This document shows, piece after piece, positions 1,680-42,186 of a stretch of 64,000 bases of DNA (within the stretch, counting starts at the first letter, position 1; each line of letters begins with the position of its first letter). The position numbers and the translations under genes are program-made. Location: positions 13,827 to 77,826 of the forward strand of contig CAYQEJ010000006.1 in NCBI GenBank assembly GCA_964416505.1, written 5' to 3'. The notes under the pieces were generated by a model. The model made no database searches, was not told where the DNA came from, and saw only the letters and a list, made by a program, of their open reading frames with translations. The DNA is from an uncultured Gammaproteobacteria bacterium. Lineage in GTDB: Bacteria > Patescibacteriota > Microgenomatia > Levybacterales > UBA12049.

Positions 1680-3479
1680 ATGAGCGCGAAGCAAATTATT
1701 GATATTTATATTAGTTTTTTTGAAAAAAGAGGACATAAAAGAATTCCTAATTCTCCGCTTATTCCTGAAAATGATCCGACCACGCTTTTTACGAGCTCAG
1801 GAATGCAACCTTTAGTGCCATATCTCTTGGGAGAAACCCATCCGCAGGGAAATCGCTTAGTAGATGTGCAGAATTGCTTCCGCGCAGTAGACATAGATGA
1901 AGTAGGAGACAATAGACATACTACATTTTTTAGAATGCTCGGAAACTGGAGTCTGGGAGATTATTTCAAGAAAGAGCAACTTCCATGGTTTTGGGAATTC
2001 CTAACTAAAGAGCTGAGGATTGATCCAAAAAAACTTTTTGTAACTGTTTTAGAAAGTCCGGAACTTAATCAAACAGATGAAGAGTCAATTCAGATCTGGA
2101 ATGAAATTTTTAACATAGAAGGGTTAAATCGTGGGGATAGAATTCACAAGTATAACGTTGATAAAAACTGGTGGTCAAGATCAGGTACTCCAGATAAAAT
2201 GCCAGTGGGCGAACCAGGCGGCCCAGACTCAGAGGTTTTTTATGATTTTGGAACTCCCCACGATAAAAGATTTGGAGACATGTGCCATCCTAACTGTGAC
2301 TGCGGAAGATTTATAGAAATTGGAAATTCTGTTTTCATGCAATACATAAAAACAGAAGAAGGATTCAATGAGCTTCCTAAAAAAAATGTAGATTTTGGTG
2401 CCGGAGTTGAAAGACTTCTTATGGCCGTAGAAAATCAATCAGATATTTTTAAAACTTCTCTTTTCGCGCCAATCATAAAATCCATAGAAGAATTAACTAA
2501 TAAAAAATATGAAGAAAATTCCAGAGAAATGAGAATCATAGCTGATCATTTAACCGCCTCAGTCTTCTTAAGTAACAGCGGTGTAATCCCAAGCAACAAA
2601 GATCAAGGTTATATTTTGCGCCGCGTTATAAGGAGAAGCACGGATAATTTAAATGTACTAGGAAGCGAGAATCTAGAACCTATAATTAAAGCAATTGTGG
2701 ATCAATATTCTTCTACTGATGAAGCGCTAAATACTAAATTTGATGAAATTAAATCTTTAATCCTTAAAGAATCAACATCTTATAAAAAAACTTTAAATGA
2801 AGCAAAGAAGCTAATTGAAAAAGAGCTTACCAAATCTGGTGGAGATAAAAAAATATCTTCAGACTTAGCATTTAAAGCCATGTCTTCCTACGGCCTCTCT
2901 CCAACTCAGCTCAAAAATCTAGGATATGAATTTAACGAGATAGAGCTCGCAGACTTAATCGATAAGCACGTTGAAATTTCCCGTGCTGGAGCGACCAAGA
3001 AATTCGCAGGAGGACTTGCGGATCATTCGGAACAAACTGTAAGAGGACACACTGCGACTCATCTTATGCATCAGGCAATTCGCGATATGCTAGGAACATA
3101 TGTTCATCAGTCAGGATCAAATATTACAAGTGAGAGAGTAAGATTTGATTTTAACTTTGATAGAAACTTAACTGATGAAGAAATTAAGCAGCTTGAAGAA
3201 AAAGTAAACGAAAAAATAAAAGAAAATCTTCCTGTTTATTTCGAGTTTATGCCTTTAGAAAAAGCTAAAGAAATAGGAGCAATTGGTCTTTTTGATGAAA
3301 AATATTCTGATAAAGTAAAAATTTATCTAATTGGAGACAAAGATCCTAGGAAAGCTTACTCTAAAGAATTTTGCGGAGGACCTCATGTAAACTTTACCTC
3401 TGACATAAAATCGTTTAAGATAATAAAGCAGGAAAATATTGGAAATGGCCTGCGTCGCCTATACGTTACGGTAGGCTAG
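1680..3479 (+). CDS. alaS: alanine--tRNA ligase, short form (catalytic + editing domains, no C-Ala domain)
   Basis: Class II AlaRS N-terminus (HKRIPNSPLIPENDPTTLFTSSGMQP...FRMLGNWSLGDYFK). Editing-domain zinc motifs HTATHLMHQAIR and CGGPHV are present. At 599 aa versus ~870, the C-terminal oligomerisation/C-Ala domain is absent. Confidence 0.9.
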   Translation: MSAKQIIDIYISFFEKRGHKRIPNSPLIPENDPTTLFTSSGMQPLVPYLLGETHPQGNRLVDVQNCFRAVDIDEVGDNRHTTFFRMLGNWSLGDYFKKEQLPWFWEFLTKELRIDPKKLFVTVLESPELNQTDEESIQIWNEIFNIEGLNRGDRIHKYNVDKNWWSRSGTPDKMPVGEPGGPDSEVFYDFGTPHDKRFGDMCHPNCDCGRFIEIGNSVFMQYIKTEEGFNELPKKNVDFGAGVERLLMAVENQSDIFKTSLFAPIIKSIEELTNKKYEENSREMRIIADHLTASVFLSNSGVIPSNKDQGYILRRVIRRSTDNLNVLGSENLEPIIKAIVDQYSSTDEALNTKFDEIKSLILKESTSYKKTLNEAKKLIEKELTKSGGDKKISSDLAFKAMSSYGLSPTQLKNLGYEFNEIELADLIDKHVEISRAGATKKFAGGLADHSEQTVRGHTATHLMHQAIRDMLGTYVHQSGSNITSERVRFDFNFDRNLTDEEIKQLEEKVNEKIKENLPVYFEFMPLEKAKEIGAIGLFDEKYSDKVKIYLIGDKDPRKAYSKEFCGGPHVNFTSDIKSFKIIKQENIGNGLRRLYVTVG

Positions 3480-3485
3480 TTCTCT

Positions 3486-5786
3486 ATGAAATTACCAAAT
3501 CTGCCCTTTTTGGAGAAAAAGAATAACTCAGAGTATTTCCTCTCATTGGTACTTCGCGATGAAAAAGCTAGCGCTGTAGTTTTTCATGAAATAAATGGAA
3601 AAATTAACGTGGTAGGAGAACACGTAGAAAATTTCAAAACTTCTATAGAAGACGCCACAGAAGATGAACTATTAGAAATAATCGATAAGGCAGTCTCAAC
3701 TGCTGAAAAAAGTCTTCCCCCAAATGTTCAGAGTCAAAAAACAATTTTTGGTGTAAAAGAAGATTGGATTGAAAATGGAAAGATAAAACCTCAATATCTT
3801 TCAAAACTTAAAAAAGTAAGCGATGAACTGGATTTTAAACCAATGGGATTTTTGGTAATTCCAGAAGCTATTGCGCATTTGCTGGCTAAGGAAGAAGGTG
3901 CTCCTATTAGCGCAATCCTAGCTGAAGTAGGACATAAATCTACAAGCGTCTCAATAATAAGAGCTGGAAAGTTGATAGAAACAAAAAATGGACCGATTTC
4001 TGATTCCATGGTAGAAAGCGTAGAGAATTTAATAAAACAATTTACCATAGAAACCTTACCAGCAAGAATTATCTTATTTGATGGAGGACGTGAAGATATT
4101 CAACAAAAATTTATTTCACATAAGTGGAGCAGAGAACTTCCCTTCCTACATCTTCCCCAAGTAAGCGCACTCCCAGCGAATTTTGACGCAAGAGCGGTAC
4201 TTTCCGGGGCTGCAACTCAAATGGGATTTGATGTTTTCGAAGCTTCAGTTACGAAAGCTGAAAAAATCGATAAAGGAGAGGTTCCTGAAATGGAAAAGCC
4301 GATAAAAGAAGAGGAAGATAAAACCCTAGGCGAAGCAGCGACTGAGTTTGGTTTTGTTGGCGGAGACATAAAAGACGAAGAGAAACCAGACGAAAAGATT
4401 GAAGAAGATGAAGAAATTGAAACGCTAGAATCAAACGAGCCAAAGATTAATGAAAAAATGCACATGGATGAAAAACCAAAAACAGCTGTTATGGATAACA
4501 TTTCCCCTGCCGATCAGTTTAGGGAAATTCCAGATGAAATAAAATTAAATAATGCTGATAAAAAACCTCTTCCAATTAATGCATCATTTATATCTATTGG
4601 CATTTTAAATTTTGTTAAAAAAATTCACATAGGAAAATTTGTTAAAGGCGCCAATAGCTCCAGGAAAAAACTTTTAATTGGCATAATTCCATTAGCTATC
4701 TTACTTTTAATTCTCTATTTATATCTTTTTGGGAGAAGCGCTACTGTAACTCTGGGTATTAATGGGCAGGAAAAAGAAAAAGAAGTAGATGTAACTTTTT
4801 CTCAAAGTGAATCTACTAATGCCTCTGAAGACATAATAAATTCAAATTTCATTACAGTTACGGAGGATGGGAAAAAATCTATCCCAACAACCGGTAAAAA
4901 AGAAGTTGGAGATAAAGCAAAGGGAGTGGTAACAATGTTTAACAGCAACTCAAATGGCGTAACTCTCCCAGCCGGAACAATAATTACTTCTTCAAATGAC
5001 CTCAAATTCTCAACTGATAAAGCTGTTACAATAGCTTCTTCCTCTGGAGATATTTTTTCAGGAACAGAACCTGGAAAAGCTGATGTTCCTGTTACTGCAG
5101 AAAAATTTGGAACTAACTATAATCTCCCAAGCAATACTAAATTTAGCGTAGAAGGAAGTTCTTCTATAGCTGCAAAAAATGATAAAGCATTTTCTGGTGG
5201 AACTAAAAAAGAAATTAAAGTTGTCGCTAAAAAAGATTTAGAAAAATTAGCAACCGACCTTCAAAAACAATTAGAATCAAGCGCCCAAGATGATCTGAAA
5301 AAACAGGCAGATAATGATTCAACTATTCTTCCAAATTTCATTACAGTTGAGTTTGATAAAAAAAGCTATTCTAAGGATGTAGATGATGAAGCGACTGAAG
5401 TAAGTCTTACTGCAAGTATAAATTATATTGGTGTTACGTATAAGAATGAAGATATTTTAGCTTTCGCAAAAGACAAATTAGAAGATGGAAGCGATCTAGA
5501 AGTTGATAAAGATAGCGTGGAAACAAGCGCTACCAATATTAAGAGCAAAGGAAAATCTGCAACAGGAAATCTCAAAATTAAAGCAAGACTTGTACCAAAA
5601 CTTGATCAAAAAACTCTCATAAAAGAAATAAAAGGTAAATCTACCAAAGAAGCTACTAGAAAACTAAATGAAATCGATGAGGTAAATAAGGTAGATATTA
5701 AAATTTTTCCACCAATTCCATTTCTACCAAATCGTCTTCCCTTCACCTCAGGGAAAATAAAAATTTCAACGGAGAAAAATGGCTAA
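3486..5786 (+). CDS. membrane protein: N-terminal FtsA/PilM-like actin-fold domain, one TM helix, large extracellular C-terminal domain
   Basis: N-terminal ~380 aa resemble the actin-like ATPase fold of FtsA/PilM (e.g. PISAILAEVGHKSTSVSIIRAGKLIETKNGPISDSMV). An acidic linker follows, then the TM segment LLIGIIPLAILLLILYLYLFG and a ~350-aa Ser/Thr/Lys-rich ectodomain. It starts 7 nt after alaS and its 3' end overlaps the sortase gene. Confidence 0.5.
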   Translation: MKLPNLPFLEKKNNSEYFLSLVLRDEKASAVVFHEINGKINVVGEHVENFKTSIEDATEDELLEIIDKAVSTAEKSLPPNVQSQKTIFGVKEDWIENGKIKPQYLSKLKKVSDELDFKPMGFLVIPEAIAHLLAKEEGAPISAILAEVGHKSTSVSIIRAGKLIETKNGPISDSMVESVENLIKQFTIETLPARIILFDGGREDIQQKFISHKWSRELPFLHLPQVSALPANFDARAVLSGAATQMGFDVFEASVTKAEKIDKGEVPEMEKPIKEEEDKTLGEAATEFGFVGGDIKDEEKPDEKIEEDEEIETLESNEPKINEKMHMDEKPKTAVMDNISPADQFREIPDEIKLNNADKKPLPINASFISIGILNFVKKIHIGKFVKGANSSRKKLLIGIIPLAILLLILYLYLFGRSATVTLGINGQEKEKEVDVTFSQSESTNASEDIINSNFITVTEDGKKSIPTTGKKEVGDKAKGVVTMFNSNSNGVTLPAGTIITSSNDLKFSTDKAVTIASSSGDIFSGTEPGKADVPVTAEKFGTNYNLPSNTKFSVEGSSSIAAKNDKAFSGGTKKEIKVVAKKDLEKLATDLQKQLESSAQDDLKKQADNDSTILPNFITVEFDKKSYSKDVDDEATEVSLTASINYIGVTYKNEDILAFAKDKLEDGSDLEVDKDSVETSATNIKSKGKSATGNLKIKARLVPKLDQKTLIKEIKGKSTKEATRKLNEIDEVNKVDIKIFPPIPFLPNRLPFTSGKIKISTEKNG

Positions 5787-6624: not shown

Positions 6625-7899
6625 ATGGATGAAAAAGAACAAGCTATAGCAGCTATCAGAAAAAAACTTGTTGGCAAAAACTTAACCTATAAAGAGATCT
6701 ATGCAATTATGGATCAGATCTCCCAAAACAAATTAGGAGATATTCTCACTACTTATTTCGCTGCCTCTGGTTTTTCAAAAGGTTTTTCAGATGATGAAAT
6801 TTATTATCTTACAAAAGCCATGGTAGAAACAGGACAACAATTAAAATTCTCAGGAATAGTTGCAGATAAACATTCCATTGGGGGAATTCCAGGAACGAGG
6901 ACTACTTTGATAGTTATTCCTATTATTGCTTCCGCTGGATTTAAAATTCCCAAAAGCTCATCGCGCGCCATCACCACTCCTTCAGGAACAGCAGATGACA
7001 TGGAAATCTTAGCTCCTGTAAATTTAACAAAAAAGAAAATTTACGATGTAGTTGAAAAAACAAACGCCTGCATAGTTTGGGGAGGAAGCTTCAATATCGC
7101 TCCAGCTGATGACATCATTATAAAAGTAGAAGAAGCACTTCTTTTTGAAAGCTACGACAAAATTCTAATATCAATAATGGCGAAAAAGGTAGCATTTGGA
7201 AGCAATCATGTAGTCATAGACGTTCCATATGGAAAATATGTAAAAGTCCATACGCTTACTGACGCAAAACTTATAAAATCAAAATTCGAAAAATTAGCAA
7301 AAAAATTCAATATAAAAATTGAAGTACTTGTTCATAAAACCGAAGAACCAGCAGGACGCGGAATCGGACCAGCACTTGAAGTAAGAGAGTCACTAAGAGT
7401 TCTTGAACAAGATTCATTAAAAAGCGAGGATCTCGAAGCAAGAAGCATAAATCTAGCAGGAACACTTTTGGAGATCTGTCTTGCAGATTCAAGTCATGAG
7501 CTCCAAAAATCAATTAGAGAAAAGTATAAAAATGGCTTCAACTGGGCGCAAGATATTTTGACCTCAGGACAAGCTCTCGTTAAGATGAAAGAAATAATTA
7601 AAGAACAGGGTGGAAATCCAAACATTAAAAGCTCTGGTATAAAAATAGGCAAACAATCATTCACTCTAAAAGCTTCAAAAAAATGCGAGATTGAAAGTTT
7701 TAATATAAAAAATCTAACTCTTATTTCAAGAATCTTAGGTGCTCCAAATATGAAGGGATCTGGTATATATTTAAACAAAAAAATTGGCGAAAAAATCAAT
7801 GCTGGCGACGTAATCTGTACTTTTTATTCTGATTCTGTGTATAATCTTAAGGAAGGTAAAGAGTCAATTAATAATTTCCCTTTAATAAACTTTAAATGA
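6625..7899 (+). CDS. thymidine/pyrimidine-nucleoside phosphorylase family (GT family 3 fold)
   Basis: KHSIGGIPGTRTTLIVIPIIASAG and TPSGTADDME are typical of thymidine phosphorylase / AMP phosphorylase. Confidence 0.8.
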   Translation: MDEKEQAIAAIRKKLVGKNLTYKEIYAIMDQISQNKLGDILTTYFAASGFSKGFSDDEIYYLTKAMVETGQQLKFSGIVADKHSIGGIPGTRTTLIVIPIIASAGFKIPKSSSRAITTPSGTADDMEILAPVNLTKKKIYDVVEKTNACIVWGGSFNIAPADDIIIKVEEALLFESYDKILISIMAKKVAFGSNHVVIDVPYGKYVKVHTLTDAKLIKSKFEKLAKKFNIKIEVLVHKTEEPAGRGIGPALEVRESLRVLEQDSLKSEDLEARSINLAGTLLEICLADSSHELQKSIREKYKNGFNWAQDILTSGQALVKMKEIIKEQGGNPNIKSSGIKIGKQSFTLKASKKCEIESFNIKNLTLISRILGAPNMKGSGIYLNKKIGEKINAGDVICTFYSDSVYNLKEGKESINNFPLINFK

Positions 7900-33414: not shown

Positions 33415-33846
33415 CTAGAATCCAATTTTCTCAACAATTAAATATACAAAAAAATTATTATACAAATAATGCATAAATATTGCGATGATAACACTCACAA
33501 TTAACCAATAGACTCCCCTCTTACCCAATAAATAAATGAAGACAATATTTGAAGTATGAATTAAAGTTGTAAAAATCAATCTAACAAAAAACAATTTCAT
33601 GTTTCCTAATGCTAATATATTGGTTAAGTATAGAAATGATTCAGAAAGAGAAAATAAGATACCTGATAAAATAACTAGATTAATCAGCTTCCTTTTTATT
33701 TTTTCTTCTTCTTTAAGTATAAAAATAACAATTAACGCTGAAAAAAATTCTTCAATTACTGATGGAAAAGGAATAATCCATTCCAAAACCATTATTGGTA
33801 ATGGGCCAAAAAAGGAAAGAAGAGGAAGTATGTATAGCGCATTCAT
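33415..33846 (-). CDS. small polytopic membrane protein, possibly CPBP/PrsW-like
   Basis: Four to five TM helices. Glu pair (VIEEFFSAL) and a HxxxN-like HYLYNN resemble CPBP motifs only weakly. Confidence 0.35.
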   Translation of the reverse strand: MNALYILPLLSFFGPLPIMVLEWIIPFPSVIEEFFSALIVIFILKEEEKIKRKLINLVILSGILFSLSESFLYLTNILALGNMKLFFVRLIFTTLIHTSNIVFIYLLGKRGVYWLIVSVIIAIFMHYLYNNFFVYLIVEKIGF

Positions 33847-36800
33847 TAGTTAGAAATTATATACTGATCATTAACCCACCCTTTTATCAGTTTATCGTCA
33901 GTTTCTATTTCAACCTGAACCCATCCTGGTGATTCGTTTATTTTTTTTGCTTTCAAATTAGCGGTAATACTTTTTAAGATTTTCGTTGAGGTAGAAGGTC
34001 CGGATCTTAAATTTACTGCACTTGGCGTTGCAATAATTTCAATATTTTGGATTTCGGATTTTACTCCTAAAACAGACTTCGAATCTTCAATGTTTACTTC
34101 ATCATCTTCTCCTCTAGTTTTTTTATTTTCTTTTGTTTCAATAGTTTTTTCTCGGGGTAAATCATTTCGTAATTCATGAGTAATTTTCTTAGAAATAAAA
34201 AATACAAAAATTATTGAAATTAAAACTAAGATTATTAAAAACATGATTATTAATATTTTTTTTGTAACTCTCTTATCTAATTCATCAATCAAATCAGCAA
34301 GAGGCTGAAAATAATTTTTATAAAATTTCTTAGAGTCATTGTCTTTTCTACCATGTCCCGCTAAGGCTCTCATATAAAACGCCATAAAAACAAAACCAGC
34401 AAGTAGAATAATTACTATTCCCCACACAGCAAATGTTTGAACACCACCCACAAATCCGAATAATGAATTTGCTGAACTAGCTGAAGTAGCTAGCGTCTTA
34501 AGATCATCTATCTCAGCTTTAGCCTTATCTACCTGAGTCTTAGCATCACGGTATGCTTTTATTCTCTGCTCTGGAGTATTAGCTTCTTTCTGAATTCTAC
34601 TAGCTGAATCCAAAGAAGCTATCACATCTGCATAAAGAGTCGCTCCTTGACCAAAATAAGTTGTCCCCTTTAGTGGCCCATAAATTTCTTTTGCTTGAAT
34701 TCTTAGTGAATCTATTTCCTCGTCAGAAATTTTCCAAATATCTTCTACTTCAACTGAATAAATTTTTGTTTGATTAGGAGACAAAACTACCTGACCGCTT
34801 GCATAATAAGCGTCTTCTGAAGCATCATACTCAATTGTCAAATCATCATCTTTTTTTATCACATCTTTATCTGTAGCTTCTTTAGGAAGATAAAACTTAA
34901 CCGGAACAGTTTGCCTTATTGAAGTTGGGTTTGTAATTAAAGTTTTAAATATAATACTTCCTTCTTCAAGCCAAGTCTGAATAATAGGGGACTTCGTACC
35001 ATTTTCTAAAAGCGTCTTATTTGCTTGTGTTAATGCCTGAAGAGCTAAAACGCTATTTTTTAAACTCTGCAGATCTGAAGCATTTGCTTTCGAAAGCGTA
35101 AGAATATCTGAAACTCCCGAAATTGAATTTGAAGATGAGACATCAGAGGAAATTGAATTGACAGCATCTATAATATCAGATGCTGTATAGCTATCCCATT
35201 TTGCCAAAACATCTGAAAGACCTGCTCCTGAGGTATCGAGATCTTGGATTGTTTCTTTATTTAATTTAAGTCTTCCATACAAAGTCGCATCTGAAGAAGT
35301 ATCAGAACTAGTACCGATCTTGGTTTGCATAGATGATATTTCTGAAATTATCGATTGCAAATCCTGATATGCTGTTGTCGATTTCCCATTATAGTTTAAT
35401 TCGCTTCTCAAACTATTTAGATTTGCCTCTGTTGTAATAGCTGAATTATAAATATCATCTGCAGTTCTTGATCCCCATTTTCCTTTTATACAATTAACCT
35501 GTCCAAAGATCGTAGAATCCAAACATGTATCGGCTGAGTCACCTAGCGAAGCGACATCCAGATTGTTGATTGCAGTCATTAAATCAGAGATTGTATAAGA
35601 ACCCCACTTAGCAAGAATCGAATCAGCTTTGGAGTCTATAGAATCCACAGTAGTATTTACAGAATCCACAGTTGTACCTATCGCATCAACGCTTGATTGA
35701 ACTCCAGCTACATCAGTAGAGACCTGAGACAAACTTTTGTTATCCGGACCCTTAATTGAGGTTGTACTCGATGAAATATCCTCTCGGGTGGCTTGTATTT
35801 TACCAAACACCGTAGAAGCCGCAGAATTATCGCCAGAAGAACCTATATTTGTATTTAGAGTTTGTGCATATGTCTTTATTGCTTGAATATCCTGATATGC
35901 AGTTGAAGATTTTCCACCATAATCCAATTCACTTCGCAGAGAAGCAGAATACGTTGCAGCATTATTTGCAGCAGCATAAAGAGTATCCGCAGTTTGACTA
36001 CCCCACTTATCTCTAATACACTTTATCCCTCCGAAAACAGTACTTGTTACACAACTATCTGCGCTCGTTCCTAGACTAGACTCCAAATCATCTACATATC
36101 CTATAACATCAGACATTGAATAAGATCCCCATTTACTTAAGATGTCAGTAGTATCCGAAAAAATAGAATCGATATTCGTATCAAGAGTATCAACTTTTGC
36201 TTCAATTGAATTTAAAGAATTTTGCGCGGTAACTAGTCCAGAATTAATCTGGGTAAGATCTTTATTCCCGGAACCTTTTATAGAGGTTGTAGCTGAAGAT
36301 GTAGCATTATTTACATCTGTTTTCGTTGCCAAACTTTCCCCGTTATCTAGACTTGCTCCTGTTAGAGTTCTTGTTGCTGAGCTCCAAATATCCGTAACCA
36401 ATGTCCCAAATGTAGTTAACGATCTCGCTGAATAACTCCAGATATCAGAAATTAATGTGCCGAATGAACTTAAAGTTCTAGATGGATAATTCCAAATATC
36501 AGCTACAGCAGGAATACTATTTTGAAGCTTTTCTCCAAAAGAACCATTATTTGTATGCGCGCTCGCTGTAGCATCCCACACCTGATCAGGAATATTTTCT
36601 TCAATAGTAAAAGTTTTATCGAGCCTTAACGTTTGACCATTTGTAGTGCAAGTAATTTGACTTCTATAAGTTCCCAAAGTCATACCTGAAGTATTAAAAG
36701 CATAGTAATACCATCCATCATTTTGGGCAGCCGAGGTCATAGATTGAGAATTTAAGAATAAGGAACCATCGGGGTATCTTGCGGTTAATGTACAAGTAGC

Positions 36801-36977
36801 ATCTATTATGGGGTCATAACTATCATCATAAAGATATTCCCCTATTGAACAACTAGAGCCTTCCGTGCATTTTTGATAGCCTGCAGTTGCGGCATAAACA
36901 ACATTTTTTGAAATAAATACAGAAAAACAGATAAAAACTATTAAAAATACAGTTTTTATCTTAATATGAGACAGCAT
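33846..36977 (-). CDS. large (1043 aa) tandem-repeat surface protein with C-terminal TM pair and SH3b domain
   Basis: Signal peptide, N-terminal beta-rich domain, about 2.3 copies of a ~170-aa Ser/Thr-rich repeat each with a Cys pair (ADSCVTSTVFGGIKCIRDKWGS / ADTCLDSTIFGQVNCIKGKWGS). Two TM helices, then a bacterial SH3-like domain (PSAVNLRSGPSTSTKILKSI...GWVQVEIE...KGWVNDQYI). Confidence 0.75.
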   Translation of the reverse strand: MLSHIKIKTVFLIVFICFSVFISKNVVYAATAGYQKCTEGSSCSIGEYLYDDSYDPIIDATCTLTARYPDGSLFLNSQSMTSAAQNDGWYYYAFNTSGMTLGTYRSQITCTTNGQTLRLDKTFTIEENIPDQVWDATASAHTNNGSFGEKLQNSIPAVADIWNYPSRTLSSFGTLISDIWSYSARSLTTFGTLVTDIWSSATRTLTGASLDNGESLATKTDVNNATSSATTSIKGSGNKDLTQINSGLVTAQNSLNSIEAKVDTLDTNIDSIFSDTTDILSKWGSYSMSDVIGYVDDLESSLGTSADSCVTSTVFGGIKCIRDKWGSQTADTLYAAANNAATYSASLRSELDYGGKSSTAYQDIQAIKTYAQTLNTNIGSSGDNSAASTVFGKIQATREDISSSTTSIKGPDNKSLSQVSTDVAGVQSSVDAIGTTVDSVNTTVDSIDSKADSILAKWGSYTISDLMTAINNLDVASLGDSADTCLDSTIFGQVNCIKGKWGSRTADDIYNSAITTEANLNSLRSELNYNGKSTTAYQDLQSIISEISSMQTKIGTSSDTSSDATLYGRLKLNKETIQDLDTSGAGLSDVLAKWDSYTASDIIDAVNSISSDVSSSNSISGVSDILTLSKANASDLQSLKNSVLALQALTQANKTLLENGTKSPIIQTWLEEGSIIFKTLITNPTSIRQTVPVKFYLPKEATDKDVIKKDDDLTIEYDASEDAYYASGQVVLSPNQTKIYSVEVEDIWKISDEEIDSLRIQAKEIYGPLKGTTYFGQGATLYADVIASLDSASRIQKEANTPEQRIKAYRDAKTQVDKAKAEIDDLKTLATSASSANSLFGFVGGVQTFAVWGIVIILLAGFVFMAFYMRALAGHGRKDNDSKKFYKNYFQPLADLIDELDKRVTKKILIIMFLIILVLISIIFVFFISKKITHELRNDLPREKTIETKENKKTRGEDDEVNIEDSKSVLGVKSEIQNIEIIATPSAVNLRSGPSTSTKILKSITANLKAKKINESPGWVQVEIETDDKLIKGWVNDQYIISN
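35180..36320 (-). repeat. diverged in-frame tandem coding repeats (~510 nt unit) within the 1043-aa surface protein gene
   Basis: The protein-level repeats map to roughly these coordinates. Nucleotide identity looks only moderate by eye. Repeat boundaries are approximate. Confidence 0.45.
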
Positions 36978-37153
36978 TATTTATTTTTACTTTCTTTTTT
37001 ACCTCCTTCGCTTTCTCCTCTAAAAGCCCCTAAAACTTCCTTCACAGCTTCAGATAAACCCTTAGCGAATTCTGGTAATTTTTTAGGACCAAATATTATT
37101 AAAAGAACAACAGCGATGATAATTATTTCTGTTTTACCTATTCCATCAAACAT
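36977..37153 (-). CDS. tatA: twin-arginine translocase subunit TatA/E (58 aa, below the ORF-track size cutoff)
   Basis: Manual translation gives MFDGIGKTEIIIIAVVLLIIFGPKKLPEFAKGLSEAVKEVLGAFRGESEGGKKESKNK. The FGPKKLPE hinge motif is typical of TatA. Its stop overlaps the ATG of the downstream surface-protein gene (TAATG). Confidence 0.7.
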   Translation of the reverse strand: MFDGIGKTEIIIIAVVLLIIFGPKKLPEFAKGLSEAVKEVLGAFRGESEGGKKESKNK

Positions 37154-37179: not shown

Positions 37180-37899
37180 TTAACGTCTATTTAATAGTAG
37201 ACCAAATTCAAACAAAAAGAAAAGTGGCAAACTAAGCAAAATTAACGAAACAATATCTGTTGGTGGAAGCAAAACAGCAACAATTAGGAGTAAAAAATAA
37301 ATATACTTACGTCTTCTAATAAGCTCATTTCTTTTTATTATATTAAGTCTTATTAAAGCTGAGATTACAACTGGGATCTGGAAAATTAATCCTGTTAAGA
37401 AAGACGTGAATATTATTTGAGCAAAGAAGTTTTGAATATCCCAAAAACTATTAACTCTAACATCTTTCCATACTACTGAGTAAAAATTTATTATTAGCTG
37501 CATTACCCATATTCCAAAAGAGAAACCTAAAACAAAAAGCACAACAGAAAGAGGAGCAAATGTTAAAAGTAATTTAGCTTCATTTGGCTTAAGTGCTGGC
37601 CTAAAAAATACAAAGAAACGAAAAAAAGCCAAAGGCGCAGCAACAATAATTCCACAAAAAATACTTATAGTAAAACTAAGGCTAATATATTGATAAGGAG
37701 AGGTAGTAACAATACTTACCCCTTTGAAAGTATAAAGATTCAAAATAAAACTAAATATTTTCTGACTATTAAAAAACCCCAACACTGCTCCTACTAAAAA
37801 AATTAATCCCACAAAAATAAAACTTTTTCTAAGTTCGAATAGGTATGGCTTATACTTTAAATATAATTCGGAAAGCTGCTGTGATTGATCATCCATCAA
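37180..37899 (-). CDS. tatC: twin-arginine translocase subunit TatC
   Basis: Six predicted TM helices in a TatC-like arrangement (LRKSFIFVGLIFLVGAVLGFF...). 239 aa, upstream of tatA. Confidence 0.8.
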   Translation of the reverse strand: MMDDQSQQLSELYLKYKPYLFELRKSFIFVGLIFLVGAVLGFFNSQKIFSFILNLYTFKGVSIVTTSPYQYISLSFTISIFCGIIVAAPLAFFRFFVFFRPALKPNEAKLLLTFAPLSVVLFVLGFSFGIWVMQLIINFYSVVWKDVRVNSFWDIQNFFAQIIFTSFLTGLIFQIPVVISALIRLNIIKRNELIRRRKYIYFLLLIVAVLLPPTDIVSLILLSLPLFFLFEFGLLLNRR

Positions 37900-37957
37900 C
37901 TAATGTTAACATTCTTACCCTTGATCAAACAATAATTATGTCGATAGAATAGCTTAT

Positions 37958-38374
37958 ATGGGCGCCAAATTTGATCCAATTTTAGGAAAACTCAGAACAG
38001 AAGACTTAGGAATAACTGAAGGAAGTTTCGGAATAACAATTGATGGCGGAGGAAACGTAATCTCAACAGGCGTAAAGGGATACGTTACTATTCCATACAA
38101 CTGCACTATTACGGGATGGGATATATTTGCTGATCAAGTAGGATCCTGCGTAATTGATCTTTGGAAAGATACTTATGCAAATTTTTCTCCCAACATTTCT
38201 GATTCTATTACTGGTTCTGAAAAACCTACTTTAACCTCAGCGCAAAAAAATCAGGATAATTCACTATCTACCTGGACAACATCTATTAGCGCAGGGGACA
38301 TAATTGCATTTAATGTAGATAGTGCTACAACAGTAACTCGGGTAAATGTTATTATTAAAGTGAATAAAATTTGA
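37958..38374 (+). CDS. hypothetical protein (138 aa), first gene of a GC-rich cassette
   Basis: No signal peptide. Gly/Thr/Ser-rich, beta-type composition (GSFGITIDGGGNVISTGVKGYVTIPYNCTITGWDIF). Its stop overlaps the next start (ATGA at 38371). Confidence 0.5.
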   Translation: MGAKFDPILGKLRTEDLGITEGSFGITIDGGGNVISTGVKGYVTIPYNCTITGWDIFADQVGSCVIDLWKDTYANFSPNISDSITGSEKPTLTSAQKNQDNSLSTWTTSISAGDIIAFNVDSATTVTRVNVIIKVNKI

Positions 38375-40548
38375 ACATGGCAAAACTAGCAGTAAATATT
38401 AATTATGGAAGTTTATCTACCTATGTTTTTCCGGGTGGATATGACTCATCAAAACTAGGCTTAGGACCCTTAATGACCCAGAAAAATGCAGGCGGAGAAG
38501 GTAGCTATGCAGGTCCTTATCCAATCGCCCTGGCAAGACCTATGGAACAAAGCACTACAATTCCTGGAGTTTATCCCTGGGCAATGCAATGGTCTACTAC
38601 GATTGACTGGGTATTCCTGGCCGATAACGCCGCAGCAGCAGCAACTAGAAGAATTATACTTTATACATACAATCGCTCAACAAATGCTTTTTCATGGCAA
38701 GGATTTATAACTGTTGGATTCCCATTCGGAGGAACCCAAGGCACATACACAATAACTGGAATGAGAATGACATATGACACATACTCAACTGGAACTGCAA
38801 GTGCCTCAGGTACTGCCGTTACTGGTTCAACTACAGCTTGGCAAGCGGCCAGAATATCTGCTGGAGCGAGAATAGGGTTTGGTTCAACTGATCCAACCCA
38901 AATAACAACATGGTATGAAATATCAGCTATCGGCAGTGACACAGGTATTACACTTAGCACTTCTGCAGGAACAGTTAATTCCGGTTCGTATGTTATAGAA
39001 GAGCTGAGAGCCGTAATTCTTACAAAAAACGGTACCACTGCTACAAATGGAGGATTATTTATAGTTAAAGGGCTAAATTTTTCAACATTTAATACTGCTG
39101 GATCACCAACTATCGCAGCTGCTACCACAACCGATAATATACGAGCAACCTTTTGGGTTAAAGATGCAGCAACTTCTACAAACACAAACGGTACCGGGCT
39201 TGCTATTCAGACGAAAGACTCAAATACTCAACATTATGTCTGGGTACTACAAGGAACTACCACCATGCAGCTCTATAAATTTAATTTAAGGGCAGCATTA
39301 ACGCTCACCTCTGGTGCGGATACGGCTAATTCTTGGCAATTTTCCACTGGAGTTTCTGCGACGCTAACAGGAACTGCATCACAGGCCAATAATGGCAGAC
39401 TTGCTAACATGTCTTCCGGACCCGGTTCTGGCTTAAACTGCATCTACTTTACAACGACTACTAGAATATATCGATCTATTGATGTCTCAACGATTACCAC
39501 CGGAGTCACAAATTTTCTCGCAGATAATTCCGCTGAAATTCCGCCAGGAAGCGCAAGCTCCACTGCTGCAACATCTCTACTTAACAGCATCGAATATGCA
39601 ACATCATTGGATAAAATGATAGTTATGACTACAGGTGCTGCAGGTGTTAGGTCATATGTTACTCAATACAGAACTGATTCTGGACAATGGGATAGATTAT
39701 TCCTAATTGATAATAAACAAATTGATCAATCTTTAGCTGATTCTACGCTTACTCCTTTTCCTGCAATTCTAGCAAGAGCTTTTTCAGTTTGGTCAGAAGG
39801 CGGAGTAGCATATCTAGCAGGTATCGGCACAACTGCAGCAACTAATCTGCTATACGCTATCCCATTGGGGGCAGATTGGGAATACACTTCCACAACTAAT
39901 TGCAGATTGGTAACACCTGCTTTTAGCACACCAAACGTTAGCTCGTATGATAAAGTTTATACTAATTCCATAACAATTCTTGGTGGAGCAACTGGACAAG
40001 TTCTAGGTTTACCCCTTGAAGCTTTCGAAACTCATTATCGAACGACAGGCATATCTGACAATTCTGGAAGCTGGACCACGCTTGATGATACTGGCGACTT
40101 ATCCAGTATTCCACCAGCTACCGAAATCCAATTCGCATATGACTTCAGAACAATAGGAACGACTTGTATTCCTGCAAGACTTCTTAGCACTACTGTTACC
40201 TACAATGACCTTTCAACTGATTCGCATTTTCAGCCATCAGTAACAAACTCATCCGCAGCATCAAAAATATTTGCCTGGAGATTTTCAACAGAATTCGGCG
40301 GGACAGTTCCTGCGCTACGTATTCGTCTCTACAATGCCGTAACCAATGGAATTTTATTAGACGACAATACAACCGATCACTCTGAGGGAACATGGGAACA
40401 ATCAACTGATGGTGGATCAAATTGGACATCCTACACTACCGTGGGCAGTCCATTATCAGACAAGTCAAACGAAACAACATATATTCGCTATACTCCCACT
40501 TCTATTGCAGATAACATAAAAGTAAGGGCACTACTTACTCAAAATTAA
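38371..40548 (+). CDS. large Thr/Ser/Gly/Ala-rich hypothetical protein (725 aa), fibre/structural-like, no signal peptide
   Basis: About 45% GC versus about 25-30% in the flanks. Low-complexity, beta-rich composition with very few Cys and no TM helix. Resembles phage tail-fibre or surface-fibre proteins in composition only. Confidence 0.6.
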   Translation: MNMAKLAVNINYGSLSTYVFPGGYDSSKLGLGPLMTQKNAGGEGSYAGPYPIALARPMEQSTTIPGVYPWAMQWSTTIDWVFLADNAAAAATRRIILYTYNRSTNAFSWQGFITVGFPFGGTQGTYTITGMRMTYDTYSTGTASASGTAVTGSTTAWQAARISAGARIGFGSTDPTQITTWYEISAIGSDTGITLSTSAGTVNSGSYVIEELRAVILTKNGTTATNGGLFIVKGLNFSTFNTAGSPTIAAATTTDNIRATFWVKDAATSTNTNGTGLAIQTKDSNTQHYVWVLQGTTTMQLYKFNLRAALTLTSGADTANSWQFSTGVSATLTGTASQANNGRLANMSSGPGSGLNCIYFTTTTRIYRSIDVSTITTGVTNFLADNSAEIPPGSASSTAATSLLNSIEYATSLDKMIVMTTGAAGVRSYVTQYRTDSGQWDRLFLIDNKQIDQSLADSTLTPFPAILARAFSVWSEGGVAYLAGIGTTAATNLLYAIPLGADWEYTSTTNCRLVTPAFSTPNVSSYDKVYTNSITILGGATGQVLGLPLEAFETHYRTTGISDNSGSWTTLDDTGDLSSIPPATEIQFAYDFRTIGTTCIPARLLSTTVTYNDLSTDSHFQPSVTNSSAASKIFAWRFSTEFGGTVPALRIRLYNAVTNGILLDDNTTDHSEGTWEQSTDGGSNWTSYTTVGSPLSDKSNETTYIRYTPTSIADNIKVRALLTQN

Positions 40549-40549
40549 T

Positions 40550-40735
40550 ATGGCACTTACTGACATTTTATTTCCAGATGGAGACTCGCAAAACTTCATT
40601 CAGACAATGAACCGAGGAAATATTGGAACTATTAATGATTATCTTACAGAAGCTGATTCGAATTCAGGAATACTCGTTGGAGAATGGACATCAACTACTA
40701 CTGCCGAAACCACTGCTTATACTTGGGTCAGTTAA
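40550..40735 (+). CDS. small hypothetical protein (61 aa), third gene of the cassette
   Basis: Starts 2 nt after the 725-aa gene. Thr-rich tail (EWTSTTTAETTAYTWVS). Confidence 0.35.
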   Translation: MALTDILFPDGDSQNFIQTMNRGNIGTINDYLTEADSNSGILVGEWTSTTTAETTAYTWVS

Positions 40736-41566
40736 CTAAAAAGTTGAGCTAAAACTTGCATAACTTTCCGATGCACGATTACTCCAATCATATCCACTTG
40801 CCCCTTTTGCATATAAAAACGATCCATCCCCAACCTCTTTAACCATATACCAAGCCCCATCTTTATTTACAAACCCATAATAAAAAGGTGCAGATGCGGT
40901 ATCAGTATTTGCGATTGCATATCCATCAGTAGGAGATTTTATAGCTGGATCTATCAAATCTCCATTTGAATCCTTAACCCCTACTATTCCAGGACCAGGG
41001 ACACTTCCGAAAAATGCAGCTCCTGCTTTTTGTGGATTTATAAGCATAGTTACAAATACGCCCAATCCAGCACCTGCTAATAATTTAAAGAAATGTCTTT
41101 TATCAATTTCCTTAATTCCTCCATATCTCTGAAGCACTAATACATCATCTGTTTTAAAATCAAAAATGTTTTCCTCAAATGAGTAAATTTTATTATTTTT
41201 ATTTATTTTTTTAAATTTAATTCTCTTAAATATTGCGCTAAGCTGATGAAGCTCTAGTGGAAAAAGAATCACAGTAAAAAATATCTCCCTAAACTCCTTT
41301 ATATTCATAATTGATGAGATAAAAAGTAAATTTACAAATATAAAGCTATAGACTGCTAGAAAAATAGAGATTTTATTTTTATGATTTTCTAAAAAACCTG
41401 GAAATCTTTTAAAAACAGACTCATAAAAATAAAATATAACCGGAATAAGACTAAATACAAAAACACTTGAAGTTAAATTTTCTGAATTTTTAAACCCGAA
41501 AAAAAACAATGAAAATACAAGAATAAGGTTATATATTAAAATGAGTTTTAAAATAATTTTCTTCAT
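40736..41566 (-). CDS. membrane protein with C-terminal extracellular domain
   Basis: Four to five N-terminal TM helices, then a soluble Gly/Tyr/Asp-rich domain (FFGSVPGPGIVGVKDSNGDLIDPAIKSPTDGYAIANTDTASAPFYYGF). Start overlaps the upstream gene stop (ATGA). Confidence 0.5.
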   Translation of the reverse strand: MKKIILKLILIYNLILVFSLFFFGFKNSENLTSSVFVFSLIPVIFYFYESVFKRFPGFLENHKNKISIFLAVYSFIFVNLLFISSIMNIKEFREIFFTVILFPLELHQLSAIFKRIKFKKINKNNKIYSFEENIFDFKTDDVLVLQRYGGIKEIDKRHFFKLLAGAGLGVFVTMLINPQKAGAAFFGSVPGPGIVGVKDSNGDLIDPAIKSPTDGYAIANTDTASAPFYYGFVNKDGAWYMVKEVGDGSFLYAKGASGYDWSNRASESYASFSSTF

Positions 41567-42186
41567 TTTATTGATCTAGTATTTTTTTCATTTATCCAAC
41601 CCCAATCTGAATCCACAGAAACCTTATACCAGCCTGAAGAGTATTGATAATATTCCAATATTTCCCCCACATTTTTTTTGCCGACAATTTGAGAAATAGT
41701 AGTAGCATCTTTATAAATGTCTATGCTTTTTCTAGATGGATCATAAACTTCAATCTTTCCTTTTGAAGTCAAAATGCCTGTAGGATTTGGGCTAATCAAT
41801 TGATTGTTAGTTACGTTCTCACTATTTTGATTTACATCAGAACTTTTCGAAGAATAAGTCGATACACCAAGTGTCGAATAATCTGGATTTTCGGAAGTAA
41901 TAATATTATCTACTCTGGAATTAAGTCTTCTTATATTTTCCCTATCTCTTTCTGCCATTTTTTTCGCCTGAACCCCAGACTCTCGAAGCACAGAAAGCTC
42001 CATTTCATGTCTTATTTTTTCCTCCTGAAGAGAATTTATTTTTAGAAAACTCGTTGTAAGAATAAAAACCAAGAAGATAACTATAATTAAAAAGGCCCCC
42101 AATTTCTTTTTGTCATTAGTTAAATTTTGGAATGAGAAATCTATTTTTTTCCACGTCATTAAATTGGGCAAATTAAAGTCCGACAT
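41563..42186 (-). CDS. membrane-anchored coiled-coil protein with C-terminal SH3b domain
   Basis: N-terminal TM (LGAFLIIVIFLVFILTTSFL), a coiled-coil segment and a C-terminal SH3-like domain (KDATTISQIVGKKNVGEILEYYQYSSGWYKVSVDSDWGWINE). Confidence 0.55.
   Translation of the reverse strand: MSDFNLPNLMTWKKIDFSFQNLTNDKKKLGAFLIIVIFLVFILTTSFLKINSLQEEKIRHEMELSVLRESGVQAKKMAERDRENIRRLNSRVDNIITSENPDYSTLGVSTYSSKSSDVNQNSENVTNNQLISPNPTGILTSKGKIEVYDPSRKSIDIYKDATTISQIVGKKNVGEILEYYQYSSGWYKVSVDSDWGWINEKNTRSIK

Follow-up and report, generated by a model that had tools for sequence, protein, structure and literature searches.

In a 64,000-nucleotide (nt) stretch of contig CAYQEJ010000006.1 (assembly GCA_964416505.1, positions 13,827 to 77,826; hereafter the window), deposited as an uncultured Gammaproteobacteria bacterium and placed by GTDB in the Patescibacteriota, three tightly packed plus-strand open reading frames (ORF1, ORF2 and ORF3) lie beside the tatC and tatA genes of the twin-arginine translocation (Tat) system. 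This cassette is a lineage variant of an operon conserved in bacteria of the candidate phyla radiation (CPR), and not a foreign island. It has been shown that the core of the operon, made up of a jelly-roll partner domain, ORF2 and a protein of about 61 amino acids (aa), is homologous to a module from the structural region of tailed phages, and that in CPR bacteria the partner domain bears a twin-arginine signal peptide where its phage homologue has an N-terminal region. The operon shows a phage domain that was turned into a secretion adaptor by the swap of its N-terminal region for a Tat signal. Our confidence in these descriptive findings on the locus is high. Beyond them, gene order points to a function, to which we give a probability of roughly 0.5, in which ORF2 would be exported in folded form by TatAC on its signal-bearing partner and would then serve as a surface binding protein.

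Relatives of ORF2 were found in 134 stretches among one-genome-per-species representatives, nearly all of them Patescibacteria bins, and tatC lies in the fetched flank of ORF2 at 62 of the 68 CPR species loci, the remaining six being on contigs that end less than 2 kb from ORF2. The usual order in this operon is a partner protein of about 200 aa, ORF2 in one to three tandem copies, a protein of about 200-275 aa, a protein of about 61 aa, tatC, one or two copies of tatA, and a giant protein of 1000-1400 aa with a Sec-type signal, the gaps between genes being mostly of a few to a few tens of nt. Homologues of the giant protein are encoded at 41 loci, in most cases right behind tatA; the one at locus L003 has dockerin and MG2 domains, while in the 1043-aa protein of the window a Sec-type signal at the N-terminus and a repeat region rich in Thr and Ser are combined with two C-proximal hydrophobic segments and an SH3_3 domain at the C-terminus. 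ORF3 belongs to the family of 61-aa proteins (hhalign probability 99.9%; family consensus starting MALTDINFQEGEGQDF), whose gene stands in the canonical operon past the ORF2 genes, and past the gene for the 200-275-aa protein where present, and ahead of tatC. This family is encoded downstream of ORF2 at 57 of 73 genomic loci and at 18 of 79 viral loci. Carriers of ORF2 outside the CPR, in Armatimonadota, Lysinibacter, Polaromonas, Rufibacter and Roseomonas, show no tat linkage. TatA and TatC have been noted in Microgenomatia, Paceibacteria and Saccharimonadia, that is, in several CPR classes (PMC9166423), and no description of the operon was found in the literature on Tat, tail fibres and hitchhiker export in Patescibacteria and Saccharibacteria.

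The Tat signal of this operon is confined to the partner. By matching of regular expressions, which is the level at which all Tat-signal calls were made, the motif [KR]RxF[LF]K followed by a hydrophobic h-region was found in 58 of 61 genomic partner proteins, and in none of 196 ORF2 proteins, 62 proteins of about 275 aa, 73 of the 61-aa proteins, 37 ORF1 domains and 51 giant proteins. Of 60 partners, 53 also have an AxA site behind the motif, and a typical partner signal reads ...DDNKRVFLKALGIAGAGLVASQILPKKSEA/LVMGSTPSS.... In the window, the sole ORF (of those with at least 80 aa in the 64 kb) that combines a Tat-like motif with an uncharged hydrophobic stretch encodes the 276-aa membrane protein that converges on ORF3, and homologous partners stand directly upstream of ORF2 at loci L021 and L165/L166. 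This protein has four N-terminal transmembrane segments, a loop with the motif DKRHFFK, an h-region (LLAGAGLGVFVTML) and an AGA cleavage-type site, after which it reads AFFGSVPGPGIVGVKD and is predicted to end in an exported C-terminal domain of about 95 aa. The motif is placed in the cytoplasm because of this topology of four transmembrane segments plus loop, and the AxA-type site after the helix suggests cleavage. The features of a Tat substrate are thus present, as regular expressions, in the canonical partner family and, as an internal KR variant, in the 276-aa protein; ORF1, ORF2 and ORF3 have neither motif nor hydrophobic segment, and no Tat or Sec-like N-terminus was found in any of the three.

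The window differs from the canonical operon in its arrangement, in which the genes of the giant protein, tatA and tatC (minus strand) are followed by ORF1, ORF2 and ORF3 (plus strand) and then by the 276-aa and 207-aa genes (minus strand). The same order is seen in two relatives of the window, one at 93% identity (L002/L005) and one at 79% (L163, from a bin labelled Dojkabacteria). In the 61%-identical relative L165 the order is canonical, with a 276-like partner, ORF2, an 80-aa protein, tatC, tatA and the giant protein, and inverting the ORF1-3 block of the window would restore it. It has thus been shown that in the window variant the block of ORF1, ORF2 and ORF3 stands in inverted orientation and points away from tatC, that a phage-type ORF1 has been added, and that the 276-aa gene converges on ORF3.

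Evidence for the phage relationship comes from both ORF1 and ORF2. ORF1 matches the PHROG families phrog_35197 (8e-34) and phrog_10330, a 'virion structural protein' (1e-21), as well as T4-like cyanophage virion proteins from a region where tail-fibre assembly genes are annotated, and has 450 homologues that share a domain of about 115 aa at 55-74% identity; among the three ORFs, it is the only one with a match to a PHROG structural protein. The domain was set beside the distal jelly-roll domains of phage tail fibres, XepA of PBSX and YomS of SPbeta. That ORF1 is a diverged copy of the Tat-partner domain was considered and rejected, hhalign giving no similarity between them. For ORF2 there are 237 matches in IMG/VR, and its viral homologues are on uncultivated IMG/VR contigs and in prophages only; tblastn against 50,697 GenBank phage records gave no match. 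An ORF1-type domain is encoded directly upstream of ORF2 at 34 of 79 viral loci; the proteins that carry such domains have 117-1646 aa, with the domain at their C-terminal end or close to it. One such example is a 519-kb contig (L119), where genes for the tail sheath and the tail tube come first, then those for a 1613-aa protein and for a 330-aa protein with an ORF1-like domain at its C-terminal end, and after these ORF2, terminase and portal; in another contig (L092) a collagen-like tail fibre has a C-terminal ORF1-like domain and ORF2 is directly next to it. At four viral loci the upstream slot holds the mature domain of the CPR Tat-signal partner, which there has no signal peptide and forms the C-terminus of a larger protein in three cases and a stand-alone 126-aa protein in the fourth. 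A 693-aa ORF2 homologue is also encoded in a prophage of the cultured Rufibacter ruber CCM 8646 (NZ_LRMM01000045.1; L041:5950-8031), which is myovirus-like, with terminase, portal, Neck1, protease, major head and sheath genes around the ORF2 homologue. The initial annotation had recognised a tail-fibre flavour in the composition of these proteins; this flavour reflects real homology, as seen from the PHROG matches of ORF1, from the ORF1-like domains upstream of phage ORF2 homologues and from the place of these homologues in phage structural modules, where at least one of them (L092) has a tail-fibre gene as its neighbour.

These phage homologues could be taken to mean that the cassette is a prophage remnant or a recently acquired foreign adhesin island, variably present and with no resident function, which is close to what the initial annotation, where the cassette is called compositionally foreign, had proposed. 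Several observations would agree with this: the closest relative of ORF2 outside its own lineage (63% identity) is on a phage-like contig, a neighbour-joining (NJ) tree places the window clade among viral and prophage-like sequences, and ORF1 is rare in other CPR loci. The GC content does rise in the cassette, to 0.39-0.44 in 400-nt windows versus 0.27-0.35 in the flanks, a contrast that had been overstated as 40-52% versus 22-30%. However, at third codon positions the GC content (GC3) is 0.232 for ORF1, 0.275 for ORF2 and 0.262 for ORF3, against a median of 0.232 among 51 window ORFs (standard deviation 0.032, range 0.16-0.305), so that the synonymous composition is host-like and the excess is confined to codon position 2, where ORF2 has a GC content of 0.552 versus about 0.34. 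Because the codons of Thr, Ser, Ala, Gly and Pro carry C or G at this position, the GC bump is an amino-acid effect and not a signature of recent transfer; the Thr/Ser-rich 1043-aa neighbour shows the same codon-position effect. In the relatives at 93% and 79% identity the arrangement is the same, and across the CPR the ORF2 family is fixed beside tatC. In a syntenic relative the neighbours are the housekeeping genes for IF-2, NusA, DnaK, GrpE, HrcA and GlmS, and scans of the 64-kb window for tRNA genes and with Rfam were both empty, which bears out the remark that no tRNA lies nearby. A search for flanking repeats or attachment (att)-like sites around the cassette gave short AT-rich chance matches only. 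Of the marks of an integrated prophage or genomic island, neither integrase, terminase, capsid, att repeats or a tRNA target nor deviant synonymous composition or variable presence was found. The initial annotation had itself named what would speak against its proposal, namely that related genomes have homologues at this locus with a composition like that of the host, and this is what is seen. A remnant or foreign island is therefore very improbable and largely refuted, and the host-like GC3 together with 79-93% identity in an identical arrangement argues for a resident function of the cassette.

What remains plausible at most is an old event, in which a phage-derived ORF1-ORF2-ORF3 block replaced the resident copy, inverted, in an ancestor of the lineage and has since ameliorated. 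The Tat-linked CPR sequences of ORF2 would be expected to form one clade if they went back to a single domestication; the tree of ORF2, which is a distance (NJ) tree only, instead interleaves them with viral clades, and a single clean origin is for this reason not supported.

The ORF2 family is large, sharply bounded and without a name. More than 1672 homologues are 50-60% identical over their full length, which is nearly constant at about 707-723 aa (some have 788-803 aa), and all are unnamed and without a Pfam domain; a profile search of 1.84 billion representatives gave 621 clusters (at 50% identity) for a cut-off of E<=1e-3 and 268 for one of E<=1e-30. Neither ORF2 nor ORF3 had a match in Pfam, PHROGs, PADLOC or the sequences of the PDB. 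As the initial annotation had described, and as composition and hydrophobicity agree, ORF2 is rich in Thr (15.9%), Ser (10.2%), Ala (10.1%), Gly (9.1%) and Asn (5.4%), has only 3 Cys, and contains no signal peptide and no hydrophobic segment that could span a membrane. The AlphaFold2 model is all-beta (pLDDT, the predicted local distance difference test, 80; pTM, the predicted template modelling score, 0.77). The core of the family is a beta-propeller with six blades, which in ORF2 is preceded by an N-terminal arm and followed by a region rich in beta structure at the C-terminus. In Foldseek against the PDB the top matches are the endosialidases of phages K1F and phi92 and gp10 of P22, with TM-scores of 0.25-0.30, which are generic propeller matches. 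An Asp-box-like motif, STDGGSNW, occurs near the C-terminus of ORF2; the features of a sialidase/BNR (bacterial neuraminidase repeat) protein, that is, repeated Asp-boxes (SxDxGxxW) together with a profile match, were not found.

Paralogues of ORF2, of about 800-950 aa each, occur as tandem triplets in CPR loci (L045, L056, L064-L066, L068, L070, L072) and also in phage contigs from IMG/VR (L127, L129), and in the NJ tree each position of the triplets forms its own clade.

The Tat pathway exports folded proteins and, in addition, signal-less subunits that are bound to a signal-bearing partner, as with HybC and HybO or DmsB and DmsA in Escherichia coli. In the reading that we favour, ORF2, which has no signal of its own, would fold in the cytoplasm and bind the partner, and TatAC would carry the complex across the membrane, with ORF2 hitchhiking on the twin-arginine signal of the partner, which would then be cut at the AxA site. 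The propeller protein would be displayed on the outside of the cell, perhaps anchored to the giant protein with its SH3 or dockerin domain, and may there bind or cleave a surface glycan or protein of another cell; the phage relatives would act alike if they are tail-fibre components. A heterodimer of ORF2 and partner, of about 90 kDa, fits within known Tat cargo sizes. The surface role itself, be it that of an adhesin, a lectin or a depolymerase, is the least secure step of this scheme. The initial annotation had allowed for a non-classical export of ORF2, for which there is now a candidate route by Tat, and this is the most attractive reading of the locus; in sum, what had been observed was partly confirmed and how it had been interpreted is partly supported. 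A broader proposal is that CPR episymbionts have domesticated a phage receptor-binding module and export it folded by Tat, a fibre shaft having been exchanged for a Tat signal, for attachment to host surfaces, with gene exchange with phages retuning its specificity; this is a tentative suggestion, and we regard it as rather doubtful.

Several points weigh against export and surface binding of ORF2. We infer both the link between ORF2 and the partner and the export from gene order only, and a fibre-like trimer or a complex of three paralogues would not fit, as it exceeds known Tat cargo sizes. Of the CPR-type tatC loci, 31 have 3.5 kb or more of upstream sequence, and among these 11 have the ORF2 operon, 4 an alternative cargo, 3 the partner only and 13 none of these. 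In the window itself, co-transcription with tatC would be lost because the block is divergent from tatC and convergent with the 276-aa gene, and the 276-aa protein departs from the canonical partner in its exported domain, past the first 25 or so residues of that domain. Pairs of the 207/276 type also occur with neither tatC nor ORF2 nearby, in Roizmanbacteria and Shapirobacteria, and in some phages ORF2 is nearer to head and neck genes than to fibre genes. Finally, ORF2 is oddly conserved for a receptor-binding tip, with 50-60% identity across phyla, a constant length and many invariant Arg, Asp, Glu and Tyr residues, a pattern no less to be expected of an enzyme or of a protein with an internal structural role.

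This conservation, together with the Asp-box-like STDGGSNW and the lack of a signal peptide, would agree with a different role for ORF2, as an enzyme (a glycosidase- or lyase-like propeller, for instance) or an assembly factor in the cytoplasm that modifies or matures the Tat-exported partner or the giant protein, the partner alone being exported. However, no catalytic family matched ORF2 by sequence, the phage ORF2 genes stand in the virion structural module directly after fibre-like genes, and paralogues in tandem triplets are more usual among structural or binding proteins; moreover, if a domain of about 140 aa were all that is exported, there would be no explanation for the tight link to a translocase of folded proteins. 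A cytoplasmic role is thus regarded as unlikely.

It is also conceivable that ORF2 is exported with its partner to form a protective or structural layer of the envelope, such as a surface-layer (S-layer)-like lattice or a mask or decoy of phage receptors against related phages, instead of acting as an adhesin. The composition of ORF2 is like that of abundant proteins, the operon is conserved together with a giant anchored protein, and the apparently frequent exchange with phages in the NJ tree would suit a role in an arms race or in exclusion. However, S-layer proteins usually have signal peptides of their own, there is no sign of lattice-forming domains or of a match to S-layer families in Pfam, and PADLOC defence profiles matched neither ORF1-3 nor the 276-aa, 207-aa and canonical 275-aa proteins. 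Such a layer is judged improbable, more so than a cytoplasmic enzyme.

A partner encoded with another cargo is found at four metagenomic loci, where a second, Thr/Ser/Gly/Ala-rich protein of about 900-1030 aa occupies the slot of ORF2 between the same Tat-signal partner and tatC. This second, unrelated cargo behind the same partner suggests a general partner-plus-cargo design. It has the motif YRYDSExDxWQQLASP and no similarity to ORF2 by hidden Markov models (loci L193:2172-7950, L195:2158-6707, L216:2915-7999 and L218:3331-7917); next to it is a protein of about 195-316 aa, homologous in three of the four, followed by tatC, the 61-aa protein being detected in L216 only. At locus L193 there are two Tat-signal partners in tandem (208 and 515 aa). 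The idea that CPR tatC is dedicated exclusively to ORF2 cargo was rejected on the count of informative tatC loci given above (11 of 31).

By comparison with known systems, the locus is outside every family that was tested, and the tests that passed are those of ORF1 as a PHROG virion protein and of the 276-aa neighbour as a bearer of a Tat signal (regular expression) only. Like the Tat hitchhikers of the HybO/HybC and DmsA/DmsB type, the CPR operon encodes a folded signal-less protein beside a small twin-arginine partner, and in addition beside tatC and tatA. Unlike in those pairs, the CPR cargo is related to a phage structural protein instead of being a redox enzyme with a cofactor, phage relatives exist for the mature domain of the partner too, co-export is what gene order suggests, and the motif in the window is KR instead of RR, internal, and placed after four transmembrane segments. 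To our knowledge, CPR bacteria largely lack cofactor-containing redox enzymes, the classic Tat cargo. For the unusual topology of the 276-aa protein there is a parallel in the actinobacterial Rieske protein (QcrA), a polytopic protein with dual Sec/Tat insertion and an internal twin-arginine-like motif before its last hydrophobic helix. The 276-aa protein is likewise polytopic with its motif just before the last helix, and by this topology Tat would move the folded C-terminal domain; unlike QcrA, it has no cofactor domain, and the two show no sequence relationship.

As regards the cargo, ORF2 resembles the endosialidases of coliphages K1F and phi92 in its all-beta propeller architecture and in the placing of its homologues in phage structural modules. 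Other phage structural genes that have become fixed in cellular genomes are those of the R/F-type tailocins, the extracellular contractile injection systems (eCIS) and the type VI secretion system (T6SS), the known ones serving cell-cell interaction. Unlike these, the CPR locus keeps a fibre-type module only, with no sheath, tube, baseplate or lysis genes, and its release would go through Tat and not through lysis or a dedicated apparatus. The locus would thus combine Tat co-export and the domestication of phage genes, which are both of known kinds, and apply them to a fibre-type module; if this is true, Tat hitchhiking would extend beyond redox enzymes. Two questions on CPR bacteria become testable in this way, namely the identity of their Tat cargo and the surface proteins by which they contact host cells, and for an unannotated family such as ORF2 the genomic context predicts localisation, partners and export route. 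The homologue in the prophage of Rufibacter ruber CCM 8646 offers a possible handle for biochemistry and for localisation in the virion.

The coordinates of the cassette and its neighbours are listed in Table 1, and those that the initial annotation had given for three plus-strand ORFs (138, 725 and 61 aa) between the minus-strand tatC and a minus-strand membrane-protein gene were confirmed.

Table 1. Features of the cassette and its flanks, in positions of the window.
Feature	Position	Strand	Description
Giant surface protein	33846..36977	-	1043 aa; SH3_3 1.1e-8; conserved last gene of the operon
tatA, Tat pore-forming subunit	36977..37153	-	Pfam TatA_B_E 5.6e-13
tatC, Tat translocase receptor subunit	37180..37899	-	Pfam TatC 3e-40
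Intergenic region between the starts of tatC and ORF1	37900..37957		58 bp, divergent; possible shared regulatory region
ORF1	37958..38374	+	138 aa; stand-alone jelly-roll domain; no signal peptide
ORF2	38377..40548 from ATG (38371 from TTG)	+	723 aa (725 aa from TTG); all-beta; no signal peptide or transmembrane segment; putative Tat-exported cargo
ORF3	40550..40735	+	61 aa; small-protein family of the canonical CPR operon
Membrane protein, homologue of the Tat-signal partner	40736..41566	-	276 aa; hhalign 99.8% versus the canonical partner family
Single-transmembrane protein, upstream partner of the 276-aa gene	41563..42186	-	207 aa; transmembrane segment at residues 25-54

Some details of the gene boundaries had to be corrected. 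The stop of ORF1 is TGA at 38372-38374 and the ATG of ORF2 is 2 nt beyond it, whereas a start at the TTG at 38371 would give a TTGA overlap; the 'ATGA' overlap that had been reported between the two is thus wrong, and the gene calls of ORF2 homologues start at the equivalent of the ATG. Since a stop precedes the TTG, no N-terminal extension of ORF2 is possible. The tight packing of ORF3 behind ORF2 holds, with a gap between the TAA of ORF2 and the ATG of ORF3 that is 1 nt and not 2. The TAA of ORF3 (40733-40735) abuts the stop of the convergent 276-aa gene (from 40736) with zero intergenic bases. No terminator-like structure was found between these two genes, and because of this and the missing intergenic base their transcripts would collide. 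In the 58-bp region between tatC and ORF1 there are two weak promoter-like matches on the plus strand (37906-37933 and 37921-37950), not above chance; around the cassette as a whole, promoter-like and terminator-like sites do not exceed the shuffled expectation.

SH3-domain proteins had been placed on both sides of the cassette, and this stands for the 1043-aa protein upstream; the 207-aa protein downstream has no Pfam match at E<=0.01, its orthologue having a weak SH3_3 match. Directly downstream of the 1043-aa gene, with a stop/start overlap, is a 143-aa ORF (33415-33846, minus strand) without a Pfam hit, the position of which is kept in close relatives (a cluster of 4 loci).

Among the species-representative contigs with a CPR-type Tat/ORF2 operon, several are titled 'uncultured Gammaproteobacteria bacterium' (L005, L021, L025, L029, L036, L065, L073 and L080), and the neighbours in L005 are CPR-like housekeeping genes; the Gammaproteobacteria labels of these bins are probably wrong. 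In a 1.36-Mb contig of Armatimonadota (L001), which has no tat genes at the locus, the ORF2 homologue is followed by a 59-aa ORF3-like gene and lies near genes for IS605 OrfB/TnpB-like, HNH endonuclease and RNase T proteins (2913-4034, 7300-7740). In Shapirobacteria the multi-transmembrane gene of the 276-aa type, with its Tat-like motif, is preceded by one for an SH3_3 protein, and in Roizmanbacteria by one for an unannotated 181-aa protein; these pairs (L249:6459-7672 and L250:6543-7807) mirror positions 40736-42186 of the window and are followed by genes for proteins of 149-163 aa.

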